DNA of 64,000 nt from assembly GCA_963834385.1 (NCBI GenBank), contig CAWIBO010000002.1, positions 64,001 through 128,000 of the forward strand, in the 5' to 3' direction. The position numbers and the translations under genes are program-made. Source of the DNA: an uncultured Verrucomicrobiae bacterium (GTDB lineage Bacteria > Verrucomicrobiota > Verrucomicrobiia > Chthoniobacterales > UBA10450). The notes under the pieces were generated by a model. That model searched no databases. It worked only from the letters and a program-made list of their open reading frames with translations, and was not told the origin of the DNA. Of the stretch, positions 4,119 to 54,871 are shown piece by piece; positions within the stretch are counted from its first letter, which is position 1; every line of letters starts with the position of its first letter.

Positions 4119-4353
4119 GAGGTCCCTCGCTGGCGCTCGGGATGACGGGAGGCTTGCAGGAAACGCAGTTAAGTGCGCGACGCGAAATCCCGTGTCATCC
4201 CGAGCCGCGCAGACGGCGAGGGACCCCACATAGAAAGGACAGGCTTCGCTCCCGCGGGAGAGGTCGCCCGCGTGTTTCCCCCATGTTTTGACGCTTCGAG
4301 AGTAGCCTCGCCGCACGTTGTTCGCGAGGTCCCTCGCTGGCGCTCGGGATGAC
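4119..4353. repeat. (C/T)GTC-tagged REP cluster: one solo reverse unit plus a 160-bp inverted pair
   Basis: Reverse unit 4119-4146, forward unit GTCATCCCGAGCCGCGCAGACGGCGAGGGACCCCAC at 4194, reverse unit 4326-4353. Confidence 0.9.
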
Positions 4354-49608: not shown

Positions 49609-49773
49609 GTCATCCCGAGCCGCGCAGGCGGCGAGGGACCCCACGATGAAAGGACGGGCTCCGGCCCCTGGTCGGGCGGGGCACAAAGGCGAGAGCGGGG
49701 TGCTGGTCCAGGAGGTTTTGGGGGTGGAACGCCGCACGTTCTTCGCGAGGTCCCTCGCTGCGCTCGGGATGAC
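49609..49773. repeat. 165-bp CGTC-REP inverted pair (REPIN/MITE-like)
   Basis: Termini GTCATCCCGAGC and GCTCGGGATGAC, with internal motifs shared with the units at 4194, 53031 and 53677. Confidence 0.9.
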
Positions 49774-51815: not shown

Positions 51816-53000
51816 ATGCATAAAGAAGCGAAAAAAATCGAGGCGAAGCGACACGATTTCGCCACGCGCACGATTCACGCCGGCCAGGAGCCGGATCCCT
51901 CGACCGGCGCAATCATGACGCCGATTTACCAGACCTCGACTTACGTCCAGGAAAGCCCCGGCCGGCACAAGGGCTTCGACTACGCTCGCTCGATCAACCC
52001 GACCCGGCTGGCTTACGAGAAATGCGTGGCTGACCTCGAGAGCGGCACGCGCGGCTGGGCCTTTGCCTCCGGCCTCGCCGCCATGGCCACCGCCCTCGAT
52101 GCGCTCGACACCGGTTCCCACGTTCTGGTGAGCGACGATCTTTATGGCGGGACCTTCCGGCTTTTCGAGAAGGTCCGGCGCCGCTCCGCCGGTCTCGAGT
52201 TCACTTTCATCGACATGACCGACGCCTCGCAGATCGAGTCGTCCCTAAAACCGAACACGCGCATGCTCTGGGTTGAGACCCCGAGCAATCCGCTCCTGAA
52301 GATCATCGATCTCGAAGCGGTGGCGCAGATTGCGCGGAAACACGGGGCCCTGGCCGTTTCCGACAACACTTTTGCCAGTCCCTGGGCCCAGCGCCCGCTC
52401 GAGCTTGGTTTCGACATGGTCATTCATTCCGCGACCAAATACCTGAACGGGCACTCCGACATGGTCGGGGGCGTGATTGTCGTGGGTGAGAACAAGGAGC
52501 TGGCGGATCAGATTCAGTTCTTGCAGAACGCCGTCGGCGCCGTGGCCGGCCCGTTCGACAGTTTCCTGGCGATGCGCGGCCTGAAAACCCTTTCCATCCG
52601 CATGGAGCGGCATTGCGAGAACGCGGGCGAGATTGCGCGCTGGCTCGAAGGCAACCCGAAACTGGAACGGCTGATTTATCCGGGCCTCGCCGCGCATCCG
52701 CAGCACGCCCTCGCCGGGAAACAGATGCGGGGATTTGGCGGAATGGTCACGCTTGTTCTCAAGACCGACATGGACGGGACCCGCCGTTTTCTCGAGAACA
52801 CCCATCTTTTCTCGCTCGCGGAAAGCCTTGGCGGCGTGGAAAGCCTGGTGAACCACCCGGCCATCATGACCCACGGCGCCGTGCCTCCGGAAACGCGGGC
52901 CAAGCTCGGCATCACCGATTCACTCGTGCGGCTGTCGGTCGGGATCGAGAACGTGGAAGACCTGAAACACGATCTCGAGACGGCGCTCGCGGCCATTTAA
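51816..53000 (+). CDS. cystathionine gamma-lyase/synthase
   Basis: YARSINPT, FASGLAA, ETPSNP, HSATKYLNGHSD, LAESLGGVESL, RLSVGIE. Confidence 0.93.
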   Translation: MHKEAKKIEAKRHDFATRTIHAGQEPDPSTGAIMTPIYQTSTYVQESPGRHKGFDYARSINPTRLAYEKCVADLESGTRGWAFASGLAAMATALDALDTGSHVLVSDDLYGGTFRLFEKVRRRSAGLEFTFIDMTDASQIESSLKPNTRMLWVETPSNPLLKIIDLEAVAQIARKHGALAVSDNTFASPWAQRPLELGFDMVIHSATKYLNGHSDMVGGVIVVGENKELADQIQFLQNAVGAVAGPFDSFLAMRGLKTLSIRMERHCENAGEIARWLEGNPKLERLIYPGLAAHPQHALAGKQMRGFGGMVTLVLKTDMDGTRRFLENTHLFSLAESLGGVESLVNHPAIMTHGAVPPETRAKLGITDSLVRLSVGIENVEDLKHDLETALAAI

Positions 53001-53024
53001 TCCGAGCAACGAGAACGCTCACGC

Positions 53025-53308
53025 GCGCGTGTCATCCCGAGCCGCGCAGACGGCGAGGGACCCCACGAAAAAAGGACGGGTATGGCCTCTGTAGCTACGG
53101 GGCGCCAAGACGAAAGCTCGCTGCCGGTTCCGGGTTTTTAAGGGTGGATCGTCGCAAGCTATTCGTGAGGTCCCTCGCTGTGCTCGGGATGACGGTGGGG
53201 CGCGGGGCGCCAAGACGAAAGCCCGCTGCCGGTTCCGGGTTCTTCGGGCGTGGATCGTCGCAAGCTATTCGTGAGGTCCCTCGCTGCGCTCGGGATGACG
53301 GTGGGGCG
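53025..53308. repeat. left CGTC-REP cassette (forward-reverse-reverse)
   Basis: Forward unit at 53031, reverse units at 53167-53193 and 53273-53299, with a duplicated spacer. Confidence 0.92.
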
Positions 53309-53597
53309 CTTGGAAGAGGTCGACGGAAAGGTCGGTCCACCGGGGGTTTTGTGCGTTGACCAGCGCGTTCTTCTTGCTCCTGCGCCAGCCTTTGATTTCT
53401 TTCTCCCGCGCGATGGCGTCACGCGCTTCGTTAAAGACCTCGAAACAGACGAGGCGGTTGAGTCGATAGCTTTTGGTGAAGCCTCGGACGACACCGTACT
53501 GATGCTCCCACACCCGGCGTTCGAGGTTGTTGGTGATCCCGGTATAAAGGACGACCCGGCTCTTATTCGTCATCAGGTAAACGAAGAAGTTCTTCAC
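53265..53597 (-). CDS. stand-alone GIY-YIG nuclease family protein (YhbQ/UPF0213-like)
   Basis: FFVYLM..LYTGITNNLERRVWEH..GFTKSY..AIAREKEIKGWRR..NPRWTDL; probable GTG start at 53597. Confidence 0.92.
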   Translation of the reverse strand: MKNFFVYLMTNKSRVVLYTGITNNLERRVWEHQYGVVRGFTKSYRLNRLVCFEVFNEARDAIAREKEIKGWRRSKKNALVNAQNPRWTDLSVDLFQAPHRHPERSEGPHE

Positions 53598-53670
53598 CGT
53601 TGAGTGCCCATTTGGCCGCTTCCCAGTCCTATCCGTGACCGGTGTGGCGGAGAAGCGCAATTACGCCCCG

Positions 53671-53943
53671 GCGCGTGTCATCCCGAGCCGCGCAGACGGC
53701 GAGGGACCCCACGAAAAAAGGACGGGTCCGGCCTTTGTAGCCGCGGGGAGCGCGGGAGGAGTCCGTTGCCGTTTCCGGGTTTTTCGGGGATGGACCGCCG
53801 CAAGCTACTCGTGAGGTCCCTCGCTGCGCTCGGGATGACGTGGGCGCGGGCGCCAGAACGAAAGCTCGCTGCCGGTCCCGGGGTGGACCACCGCAAGCTG
53901 TTCGTGAGGTCCCTCGCTGCGCTCGGGATGACGGAGGGGGCGC
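53671..53943. repeat. right CGTC-REP cassette (forward-reverse-reverse)
   Basis: Forward unit at 53677, reverse units at 53813-53839 and 53906-53932; an imperfect direct repeat of the left cassette. Confidence 0.92.
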
Positions 53944-53944
53944 C

Positions 53945-54748
53945 TTACCGGCTTGGAAGTTTCGTCAGCAGTTCGTCGATCTCCTGTTTGAATCCAGGAT
54001 AGGGCCGGGCGCCTTTGATAAACCGAAGCGGCTTGAAAGCACCGTCCGGGGTCGTTGTCCCAAGAAAAAAGGCCGGGGTGCCGGTAACGCCGGCCCGCTT
54101 CCCGTCGGCCAGGTCGCGCCGGACTTTATCGGCATGAGTCCCCTGCGCCAGGCAGCTTTCGAATCGGGCCGAATCCAGCCCAACCGCCGCTGCGTGGGCC
54201 GTCAGGTCGGCCGGAGCGAGGGCCCGCGGATTGGCAAAAAGGGCGTCGTGCATCTCCCAGAATTTTCCCTGGTCCCCGGCGCAGAGCGCGGCTTCGTGCG
54301 CCTTGAACGCCTTTTTGTGGATCGATTCGAGCGGGAAGTTCCGGAAGACATACCGAAGTTTCCCGGTCGCGATGTATTCCGCCTCGAGCTGCGGCAGGGT
54401 CTGTTTCACATGGCGCGCGCAAAAACCGCATTCGTAATCGGTGAACTCCACCAGGGTCAGCGGGGCGGCGGCTTCCCCTTTCGCCGGGGCCCCGGCGAGG
54501 TTCATGGTTACGTCGCGCAACGGGACACCGGCGCGCGGCGGTGCCGGGCGGGGCCTCTCGCGTTCCTGCGCGATCTCGCGGCGCAAAGCGTCCTGCGCCG
54601 TCCGGAATTGTTCGACTTCCTTCCGGAGACGGGCCAGTTCCCGCTGGTTGCCGATCCCGTAGACGGCGGCGACGATGGCTCCCGCCCCCAGCAGAAAGAA
54701 GAGGAAAATCACCCCGACTGGCGAGAGTCCCCGGCTGGCCCTGGCCAT
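53945..54748 (-). CDS. DsbA-like thioredoxin domain protein
   Basis: [37 protein letters not shown]-terminal TM segment plus coiled coil. Confidence 0.9.
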
Positions 54749-54871
54749 GTTTTGCCGTGTCGGTTTTCGCCGGCTGCGCCATCGGCCGGAATATGCGGGA
54801 AGGAGAGGCGCGAGGAAAGCCCGGATAAACGCGCTACAAAAAAGGGCGCGCATGCTCTAGCATGCCGCCGC

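Follow-up and report, generated by a model that had tools for sequence, protein, structure and literature searches.

A small GIY-YIG nuclease gene and its tagged hairpin repeats in a soil Verrucomicrobiota genome: most likely a tandem G·A variant of the Ssn systems

Results

Organization of the locus

The window analysed here is a 64-kb stretch of contig CAWIBO010000002.1 from the 2.9 Mb genome, referred to as G000, of an uncultured Verrucomicrobiae bacterium. Between window positions 53025 and 53941 lies a gene for a small GIY-YIG nuclease, placed between two direct repeats of ~270 bp that hold three hairpins each. A first-pass annotation had described this arrangement, together with the occurrence of the same repeats without the nuclease elsewhere in the window, and all of these elements are present where it placed them. 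The nuclease and its hairpins most likely constitute a system of the Ssn type, in which a single-domain GIY-YIG endonuclease gene is accompanied by its own family of tagged hairpins, and the hairpins of the window are distinguished by a tandem G·A mismatch in the stem. The features of the locus are as follows.

53265..53660, minus strand: open frame of 131 codons (open reading frame listing)
53268..53597, minus strand: ssn-like GIY-YIG nuclease gene, 110 amino acids (aa), GTG start at 53597 (PF01541 and homologue alignment)
53598..53676, minus strand: leader of 79 bp between the upstream hairpin and the start codon
53025..53308, no strand: repeat block 3' of the gene (repeat comparison, hairpin pattern, structure-aware finder)
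53031-53061, plus strand: long hairpin of the 3'-side block
53170-53193, minus strand: short hairpin of the 3'-side block, variant with an ACA loop
53276-53299, minus strand: short hairpin of the 3'-side block
53671..53941, no strand: repeat block 5' of the gene, in direct repetition of the 3'-side block
53677-53707, plus strand: long hairpin of the 5'-side block
53816-53839, minus strand: short hairpin of the 5'-side block
53909-53932, minus strand: short hairpin of the 5'-side block
4122..4353: hairpin cluster without a nuclease gene, at 4122-4146 (minus), 4194-4224 (plus) and 4329-4353 (minus)
49609..49773: inverted hairpin dimer without a nuclease gene, at 49609-49639 (plus) and 49750-49773 (minus)

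The start of the nuclease gene was placed at GTG 53597 using an alignment of 33 sequences (the window protein and 32 homologues), and the length is given as 110 aa because the homologues begin at the residue matching this codon; the stop codon occupies 53265-53267. The product matches the Pfam GIY-YIG family PF01541 with an E value of 3.4e-14 and 53.3 bits (cut-off 22.6) over residues 25-97 of the 131-aa open frame, with no second Pfam domain, and is thus a single-domain protein; a scan against NCBIfam gave no match near any cut-off. Residues Y7, Y18, R28, H32, E65 and N84 are invariant in an alignment of eight sequences reaching from Verrucomicrobiota to Neisseria. The last ~10 codons are contributed by the hairpin repeat, and the C-termini of many homologues are likewise translated hairpin. 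With the window protein as query the nuclease is present in a single copy in G000; another GIY-YIG match in that genome (C2:704774-705010, L082, E 4.7e-9) lies in a 233-codon frame, shorter than UvrC.

Relationship to the Ssn nucleases

A tblastn search of a plasmid collection (7.3 Gb) identified a chromosome-sized Neisseria gonorrhoeae record (E 2e-11) in which the homologue is a 94-aa open reading frame (L083:1489-1770) set among nine exact NTS repeats within 3.3 kb; SsnA is also 94 aa long (Chenal et al. 2025, PMC11893778). The window nuclease aligns by BLASTP with this gonococcal frame without gaps over 90 of 94 aa, at 33% identity and E 2e-20. These values fall within the homologue criterion of Chenal et al. 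(E < 1e-10 to SsnA over at least 75% of its length; PMC11893778), as measured on the gonococcal frame and not on N. meningitidis CAX49033.1.

As described by Chenal et al. (PMC11893778), Ssn are small single-domain GIY-YIG proteins of CDD's cd10448 family (GIY-YIG_unchar_3) whose genes are bordered by CGTCAT-tagged hairpins, named NTS and, as a broader class, SRM, with SRM found near 71% of homologues. In purified form, four homologues bound the hairpin and cleaved single-stranded DNA (ssDNA) just upstream of it, and were inactive on duplex DNA, RNA and the complementary strand; SsnA did not bind RNA, and the NTS-ssnA-NTS layout was likened to an insertion sequence (IS200) and to the pairing of repetitive extragenic palindromic (REP) sequences with REP-associated tyrosine transposases (RAYTs) (PMC11893778). 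In common with these, the window system has a protein of ~100 aa with a GIY-YIG domain only and homology to its Neisseria counterpart, a gene flanked on both sides by (C/T)GTCAT hairpins, dozens of extra genomic hairpins often in inverted pairs, and a tendency for hairpin-rich genomes to be gene-positive. It differs in its host, a soil lineage of Verrucomicrobiota, and in its stem, which has tandem G·A/G·A where the published Ssn repeats have two Watson-Crick pairs, as well as in its 3-nt loop and its CTCAC tail. The window system is therefore a variant of the kind described in 2025, and the principal novelty claimed for it by the first-pass annotation is not new. That annotation took CGTC-tagged REPs to have no assigned enzyme, which fits the 2013 conclusion of Di Nocera et al. 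(PMC3733652) that CGTC REPs are without a transposase, and which was overtaken when Chenal et al. tied Ssn GIY-YIG proteins to CGTCAT hairpins and showed ssDNA cleavage (PMC11893778).

Cutting of branched DNA by Slx1-type proteins, also offered as a model, does not provide the nearest one, SsnA being inactive on double-stranded DNA (dsDNA) and RNA (PMC11893778). Proteins of the UPF0213/SLX1-like group such as BH0048 (PDB 1ZG2) have the GIY-YIG fold and a similar size (E 2.5e-6), and are farther from the window protein than the SsnA-type homologue (E 2e-11 in the 7.3-Gb tblastn). The UPF0213 entries 1ZG2 and 1YWL were the sole matches in a sequence search of PDB, which returned no Ssn structure. 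We know of no repeat association for UPF0213/SLX1-like proteins.

Apart from Chenal et al., literature searches joining GIY-YIG with SsnA returned a single review, on SLX4 and not on this subject, and those joining GIY-YIG with repetitive extragenic palindromic sequences returned nothing. Among the matches listed for GIY-YIG with intergenic palindromic hairpin repeats, most concerned mitochondrial genomes or organellar introns and none bacterial hairpin repeats; among those listed for the hairpin 12-mers, judged by title and abstract, none was on bacterial repeats.

Anatomy of the hairpins and repeat blocks

All six hairpins flanking the gene have an unpaired CGTCAT or TGTCAT tag, a stem starting with AT and a short tail, which in the window is CYCAC. 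The order of elements is (C/T)GTCAT, a 3-nt outer arm, GA, inner stem, loop, inner stem, GA, outer arm, A(C/T) and the tail, such that the stem comprises 3-4 bp, an invariant tandem G·A/G·A and a further 2-4 bp, closed by a loop of 3 nt in the short form and 6 nt in the long form. The CGTC tag attributed to the whole set by the first-pass annotation holds for the four short hairpins (CGTCAT), the two long ones carrying TGTCAT. A minimum-energy DNA fold reproduces this shape, the GA/GA positions forming a 2x2 internal loop.

Covariation was examined among 24-mers from G000 and 79 related loci, anchored on the tag, both GA dinucleotides and the closing A(C/T), with pairing not required. The 52 distinct 24-mers pair in 241 of 260 cells, compared with 100-104 of 260 when the partner column is shifted by one, and the exchanges include C:G/T:A (26/23) and G:C/A:T (38/8). 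Tandem G·A, as sheared pairs, would be stable on one strand only because the complement is C·T/T·C, a property that would fit strand-specific recognition.

The search pattern GTCATCCCGAGC-N(3-16)-GAGGGAC has 11 matches in the window, compared with a mean of 0.00 in 100 dinucleotide-preserving shuffles; six flank the nuclease gene and five lie elsewhere. A looser expression allowing mismatches gave 65 matches, many of them by chance, and was replaced by a structure-aware finder, which identifies 53 hairpins in G000 and 14 inverted dimers with outward-pointing tags. These dimers have only their ~40-bp ends in common, with unrelated spacers; inverted ends are present as in a miniature inverted-repeat transposable element (MITE) or insertion sequence, but no internal sequence is common to the 14, and they are nearer to bacterial interspersed mosaic elements (BIMEs) than to one MITE family. 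A search of Rfam over 52900-54050 matched no family at E up to 1.

The hairpins also resemble the CGTC REPs of Di Nocera et al. (PMC3733652), in that both carry a terminal CGTC/TGTC tag and a short tail, have stems that begin with AT, form inverted dimers, lie between genes and are served by no tyrosine transposase of their own; families CGTC-1 to -4, however, have uninterrupted stems of 8-9 bp and loops of 4-5 nt, whereas the window stem is interrupted. The abstract and the section on CGTC families in that paper name no Verrucomicrobiota (PMC3733652).

Within the window blocks, 53025-53105 and 53671-53751 are 93% identical over 81 nt, and four copies of an 89-nt unit, 69-100% identical, are located at 53114, 53220, 53760 and 53853; the segment 53031-53193 is one inverted hairpin dimer with its tags pointing outward. 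Read in the orientation of the gene, the elements run as hairpin, dimer, leader of 79 bp, gene, hairpin and dimer, and a similar dimer-gene-dimer layout is seen in three relatives. The two ~270-bp blocks are the only G000 dimers with related spacers, and may reflect either a local duplication or the homologous integration of an excised piece whose block matched one in the chromosome. The leader lacks the canonical hairpin that relatives have ~15 bp before the start codon, and we read it as a decayed hairpin. A DNA profile of 365 positions, built from 33 canonical cassettes, aligns to the window gene only at positions 35-324 and not over the hairpin ends, so that the window copy lacks its own two canonical end hairpins.

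Association of hairpins with nuclease homologues

Relatives of the window nuclease are numerous, with 3931 at E up to 0.001 among 3935 candidates scored, and the best 120 are 63-74% identical over the aligned parts. We assembled 79 homologous loci, one genome per species, nearly all of them from Chthoniobacterales or 'Candidatus Udaeobacter'. A structure-defined hairpin lies within 300 bp of the gene at 76 of these loci, bearing out the predicted enrichment of tagged palindromes around GIY-YIG homologues, and on both sides at 53; the structure-aware finder found none at the remaining three (L002, L030 and L076). Hairpin density within the first 100 bp is 7.2/kb upstream and 6.5/kb downstream, and falls about 200-fold to ~0.03/kb past 300 bp. 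The commonest layout (34 of 79) is a cassette of ~370 bp composed of a hairpin, ~15 bp, the gene and a second hairpin, with the tags pointing outward.

At the level of whole genomes, a degenerate hairpin pattern and a reversed control pattern were counted in 151 genomes of the order, which are related and not independent. The hairpin pattern has 0-456 matches per genome and the control 0 or 1, and all 16 genomes of the family to which the window belongs have matches. A nuclease match at E 1e-20 or better is present in 17 of the 25 genomes with at least ten hairpins and in 5 of the 126 with fewer. Broken nuclease copies appear to be fairly frequent, since eight of 50 listed matches contain an internal stop; one of the eight is weak (E 8e-7), whereas the other seven reach E 1e-21 or better. 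Five genomes (G101, G117, G014, G093 and G125) hold three to five divergent nuclease copies each, with hairpin counts of 23-170; gene and repeat copy numbers in them do not scale simply.

Hairpin variants follow nuclease clades

A tree built from the window protein, five named homologues and 20 additional copies, taken from eight genomes within the family or order of the window host, contains six supported nuclease clades, which were matched by eye to hairpin types.

Clade A (includes the window protein): inner part GC-NNN-GC or a longer GC-rich stem; tail CTCAC/CTCGC
Clade B: inner stem as in clade A; tail AT-CTCTG
Clade C: inner part of 8 nt; tail CTCTA
Clade D: inner part of 8 or 18 nt; tail AT-CC
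Clade E: long inner part; tail CTT
Sixth clade (Neisseria, Aeromonas, Azospirillum): stem perfect and without a G·A pair

The expectation that repeat sequence co-varies with nuclease phylogeny is upheld in this by-eye comparison, each of the six clades having its own inner part or tail. The five paralogues of G101 come from clades A, B and C, and each is flanked by its own hairpin type. Among proteobacterial homologues (33-46% identical), perfect-stem hairpins conforming to the SRM motif are present at six of eight loci and the G·A type at none of the eight; the loci of Novosphingobium pNL2 and Rhizobium tumorigenes have no tagged hairpin within 600 bp. A Planktothrix homologue (53% identical) is accompanied by three G·A hairpins, and a Spirosoma homologue (49% identical) by a G·A hairpin with a 1-bp inner stem, identified by eye.

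Several of these more distant loci have features of their own. The homologue on Planktothrix agardhii plasmid p1 (L084) is located between an MmeI-type restriction-modification gene and the DISARM gene drmA, and the one on Azospirillum lipoferum plasmid AZO_p3 (L085) between sufB and sufC, with a hairpin dimer on each side. At ~1839-1906 of L084, about three tandem copies of the tag and left arm, with a period of ~23-25 bp, precede a complete hairpin; tandem copies of tag and left arm, the later ones imperfect, are likewise found upstream of the cassette at L185, in a genome (G084) unrelated to that of L084.

Occupied and empty sites

The nuclease and repeat block of the window lies between two convergent genes.

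51816-53000, plus strand: Cys/Met-metabolism pyridoxal-phosphate (PLP) enzyme of the cystathionine lyase/synthase type, left neighbour (PF01053, E 3e-148)
53945-54853, minus strand: DsbA-like thioredoxin-fold gene, right neighbour (PF13462, E 1e-26; also PF01323)

Chorismate synthase comes immediately after the PLP-enzyme gene in eight of nine relatives examined, whereas in G000, and in this genome only, these genes are separated by ~1.86 kb (window 53001-54860) containing the repeat blocks, the nuclease and the DsbA-like gene. Three unpublished genomes are included in the counts that follow: G152, with hairpins after the PLP-enzyme gene, G155, with a PLP-site locus, and G161, with an empty junction in the transporter operon described below. 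The first-pass annotation had suggested a look for empty cgl-dsbA sites in relatives. In none of 29 family relatives is the nuclease present in the 1.5 kb downstream of the PLP-enzyme gene (hairpins occur there in two of 29), and no DsbA-like gene was found downstream of the PLP-enzyme gene in the 29. An empty-site comparison based on the DsbA-like gene was abandoned in favor of the PLP-enzyme neighbour, the relatives being too divergent (full-length matches in 2 of 30); in G170, which has the best DsbA match among them, the homologue is at a different place. One soil sequencing run (0.06 of words) gave short contigs 85-95% alike and no joint across the element.

A second site is far better sampled. 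At 45 of the 79 loci the nuclease gene adjoins an operon encoding HlyD, an ATP-binding cassette (ABC) ATPase and an ABC-2 permease, and in 42 of these 45 it lies between the ATPase and the permease. The corresponding junction in G000 is empty, with overlapping stop and start codons (TGATG). A survey of this junction in the 30 best-matching family genomes gave the following states.

Compact and empty (gap 0-44 bp): 15 of 30 genomes, G000 included
Full cassette: 6 of 30, and one more whose ATPase side runs off the contig end
Hairpin(s) with half a gene, either the 5' or the 3' half: 2 of 30
Bare hairpin dimer, 156-165 bp: 2 of 30
Gap with a 66-bp tag-to-tag palindrome: 1 of 30
Other filler: 2 of 30
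Not scorable: 1 of 30

Without G152, G155 and G161 the nuclease is at the PLP site in none of 26 relatives, hairpins are there in one of 26, and 14 of 29 ABC junctions are empty. The series shows that some gene-less hairpin dimers are deletion derivatives of cassettes at one orthologous ABC site. The 66-bp filler (L171, in G151) consists of GTCATCCT, a 13-nt loop and AGGATGAC, and a sister genome keeps a half-deleted cassette; new short palindromic repeats may originate by way of minimal palindromes of this type.

In a permease tree there are three pairs of occupied and empty sister taxa with starred support, and starred branches force at least five changes involving the empty state. Across 37 occupied ABC loci, nuclease distances correlate with those of the permease (Spearman 0.69) and of the ATPase (0.72), none of 500 permutations being as high; for permease and ATPase distances the value is 0.87. 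Such co-divergence of cassette and flanks points to long vertical residence at the ABC site, and the scattered empty sites may have come from allelic replacement by recombination rather than from excision and re-insertion. No target-site duplication was seen by eye at the cassette junctions examined.

Discussion

The most likely account of these observations, which we regard as reasonably probable, is that an Ssn-type enzyme recognises its own tagged hairpin in ssDNA and cuts beside it, and that decay of cassettes gave rise to at least part of the gene-less dimers. Judging from its homology with SsnA, the nuclease would bind the hairpin when the DNA is single-stranded, presumably reading the tag (C/T)GTCAT, the stem that contains the tandem G·A mismatch and, on the 3' side, the short tail; it would cut the hairpin strand a few bases 5' of the tag, and would spare dsDNA and the complementary strand. 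The ancestral unit would be the ~370-bp cassette with outward tags, and the window copy appears to be one that was stripped of its own end hairpins and now sits between two duplicated hairpin-dimer blocks. Since such an enzyme would be a hydrolytic nuclease and not a transposase, any spread of the repeats would have to use host repair or recombination. Candidate roles in the cell are the restriction or shaping of incoming or exposed ssDNA, or purely selfish persistence. That nuclease and hairpins form a cognate pair, as the first-pass annotation supposed, is supported by the hairpins at 76 of 79 loci, the clade-tracking variants, the mostly gene-positive state of hairpin-rich genomes and the bare dimers at the cassette site.

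Several results weigh against this account. The cassette profile matches the G000 dimers only at positions 1-44 or 304-365 and the dimer spacers contain no nuclease remnant, so that not all dimers can be demonstrated to be fossils. The number of repeats tracks the presence of the nuclease only in part, given that eight of the 25 hairpin-rich genomes (G029, G054, G109, G005, G087, G095, G127 and G143) have no nuclease match. When five of these were searched with PF01541, G029 and G054 proved to hold other small GIY-YIG frames and G143 frames of 370 and 193 codons, and in G109 and G087 only UvrC-sized GIY-YIG frames were found. The DNA folding energies of the hairpins are not better than those of shuffled sequences (z +0.17 to -1.38) and have no strand asymmetry; the case for the structure rests therefore on covariation. 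All four enzymes assayed in print belong to the perfect-stem clade and none to the G·A type (PMC11893778). Finally, the published SRM motif, HGTCWYN(0-2)YYVSBRHN(0-5)WNVSBRGN(0-2)RNCYNB (PMC11893778), has no match in the 64-kb window; the same script recovered nine of nine NTS in the Neisseria locus and four matches in Azospirillum, and the window hairpins escape the motif because the A of the G·A pair violates a position 'B'.

A GIY-YIG counterpart of the RAYT/REP pair, in which the cassette is an autonomous mobile element and the dimers are non-autonomous partners nicked and spread in trans, is suggested by the ~40-bp ends common to cassette and dimers, by the presence of 300-456 hairpins in some genomes, and by the position of the window copy at a site occupied in none of 29 relatives while the usual ABC site of G000 is empty; the same idea is raised in the Discussion of Chenal et al. 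(PMC11893778). As in REP/BIME-RAYT systems (REPtrons) and IS200/IS605 elements, a small gene is boxed by hairpins scattered through the genome, a single-stranded hairpin would be recognised and BIME-like dimers are formed, but the enzyme of the window belongs to the metal-dependent GIY-YIG hydrolases and not to the covalent tyrosine (HUH Y1) transposases. The three occupied and empty sister pairs and the five or more forced state changes would also be expected of a mobile element, yet allelic replacement by homologous recombination could explain scattered empty sites equally well, and the co-divergence of nuclease, permease and ATPase at 37 loci argues for long vertical residence. The mutually unrelated dimer spacers, the lack of a target-site duplication at the junctions examined, and the absence of any sign of joining activity or recent movement also count against mobility; to our knowledge GIY-YIG enzymes are hydrolases of DNA for which a rejoining activity is not known. 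We consider mobilisation of this kind unlikely, and the proposal of the first-pass annotation that the nuclease spreads the hairpins is not borne out, the cassette at the best-sampled site co-diverging with its flanks and the spacers of G000 dimers containing no detectable remnant. Still less probable, to the point of being very doubtful, is a role of the hairpins chiefly at the RNA level, where they would act as terminators or stabilise mRNA in the manner of classical REPs, with the nuclease gene as a passenger. Such a role was proposed for REPs by Di Nocera et al. (PMC3733652), and the hairpins are indeed intergenic, often follow convergent genes, and are likely to be transcribed where the cassette lies inside an operon, as in 42 of 45 ABC loci; against it, they occur in both orientations relative to neighbouring genes, match nothing in Rfam, and come in variants that switch with the nuclease clade inside one genome, which a general RNA role does not predict, and SsnA does not bind RNA (PMC11893778).

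Chance could also be invoked, with repeats piling up in permissive intergenic DNA and the nuclease landing among them by accident, and the window itself lends this some color, its arrangement being atypical, with a gene that lacks its own end hairpins and two blocks that could be a local duplication. The ~200-fold excess of hairpins over the farther flanks at the 79 loci, and the same association in other phyla with other hairpin variants, make this explanation highly improbable. Reading the locus, then, as an Ssn-type nuclease with its own hairpins, one may go further and propose that G·A cassettes are a separate Ssn specificity class, that orthogonal pairs coexist within a genome, and that scattered CGTC dimers were seeded by cassettes through internal deletion or nuclease-triggered repair copying. 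We regard this extension as speculative and, taken as a whole, rather doubtful; were it true, a whole superfamily of REP-like repeats in bacteria would owe its origin to a hydrolytic GIY-YIG nuclease and not to a transposase.

What is added to the published description (PMC11893778), as far as its main text and Supplementary Data 4 extend, is a whole Ssn branch with a tandem G·A hairpin that is invisible to the SRM motif, present in Verrucomicrobiota and in single examples from a cyanobacterium and a Bacteroidota, groups of which that main text makes no mention. In Supplementary Data 4, Chthoniobacter flavus is positive for a homologue and for cd10448 with 68 SRM matches compared with 70.9 in shuffled sequence (enrichment 0.96), and Planktothrix paucivesiculata is homologue-positive with an enrichment of 0.79 (PMC11893778). 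The order to which the window host belongs bears the name of Chthoniobacter, and G·A hairpins may explain such homologue-positive genomes without SRM enrichment. The joint change of nuclease clade and hairpin, even among the paralogues of a single genome, provides a natural panel for studying how a protein of 100 residues reads a hairpin, and the clade-specific pairs offer a choice of orthogonal ssDNA cutters as tools. Likewise, the full range of states at one orthologous position, from cassette through bare hairpin dimer to empty site, is direct evidence for the origin of some REP-like dimers.

Transposase-like matches in G000

The first-pass annotation described the locus as a system without a RAYT. 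This is correct for the surroundings of the hairpins, as no Y1_Tnp-like match lies within 65 kb of one, but the genome does hold four Y1_Tnp (PF01797)-like matches, the nearest hairpin being 66.8 kb away; the GIY-YIG gene, by comparison, is 152 bp from one hairpin. Two of these domains lie within frames of unexpected character: at C2:733659-733850 (L187) the domain follows in frame a leucyl-tRNA synthetase-like N-terminal part in a 712-codon frame, and at C3:125156-125338 (L188) it lies inside a 707-codon frame resembling alanyl-tRNA synthetase. In-frame transposase-like inserts in essential aminoacyl-tRNA synthetase genes are an odd feature of this genome.

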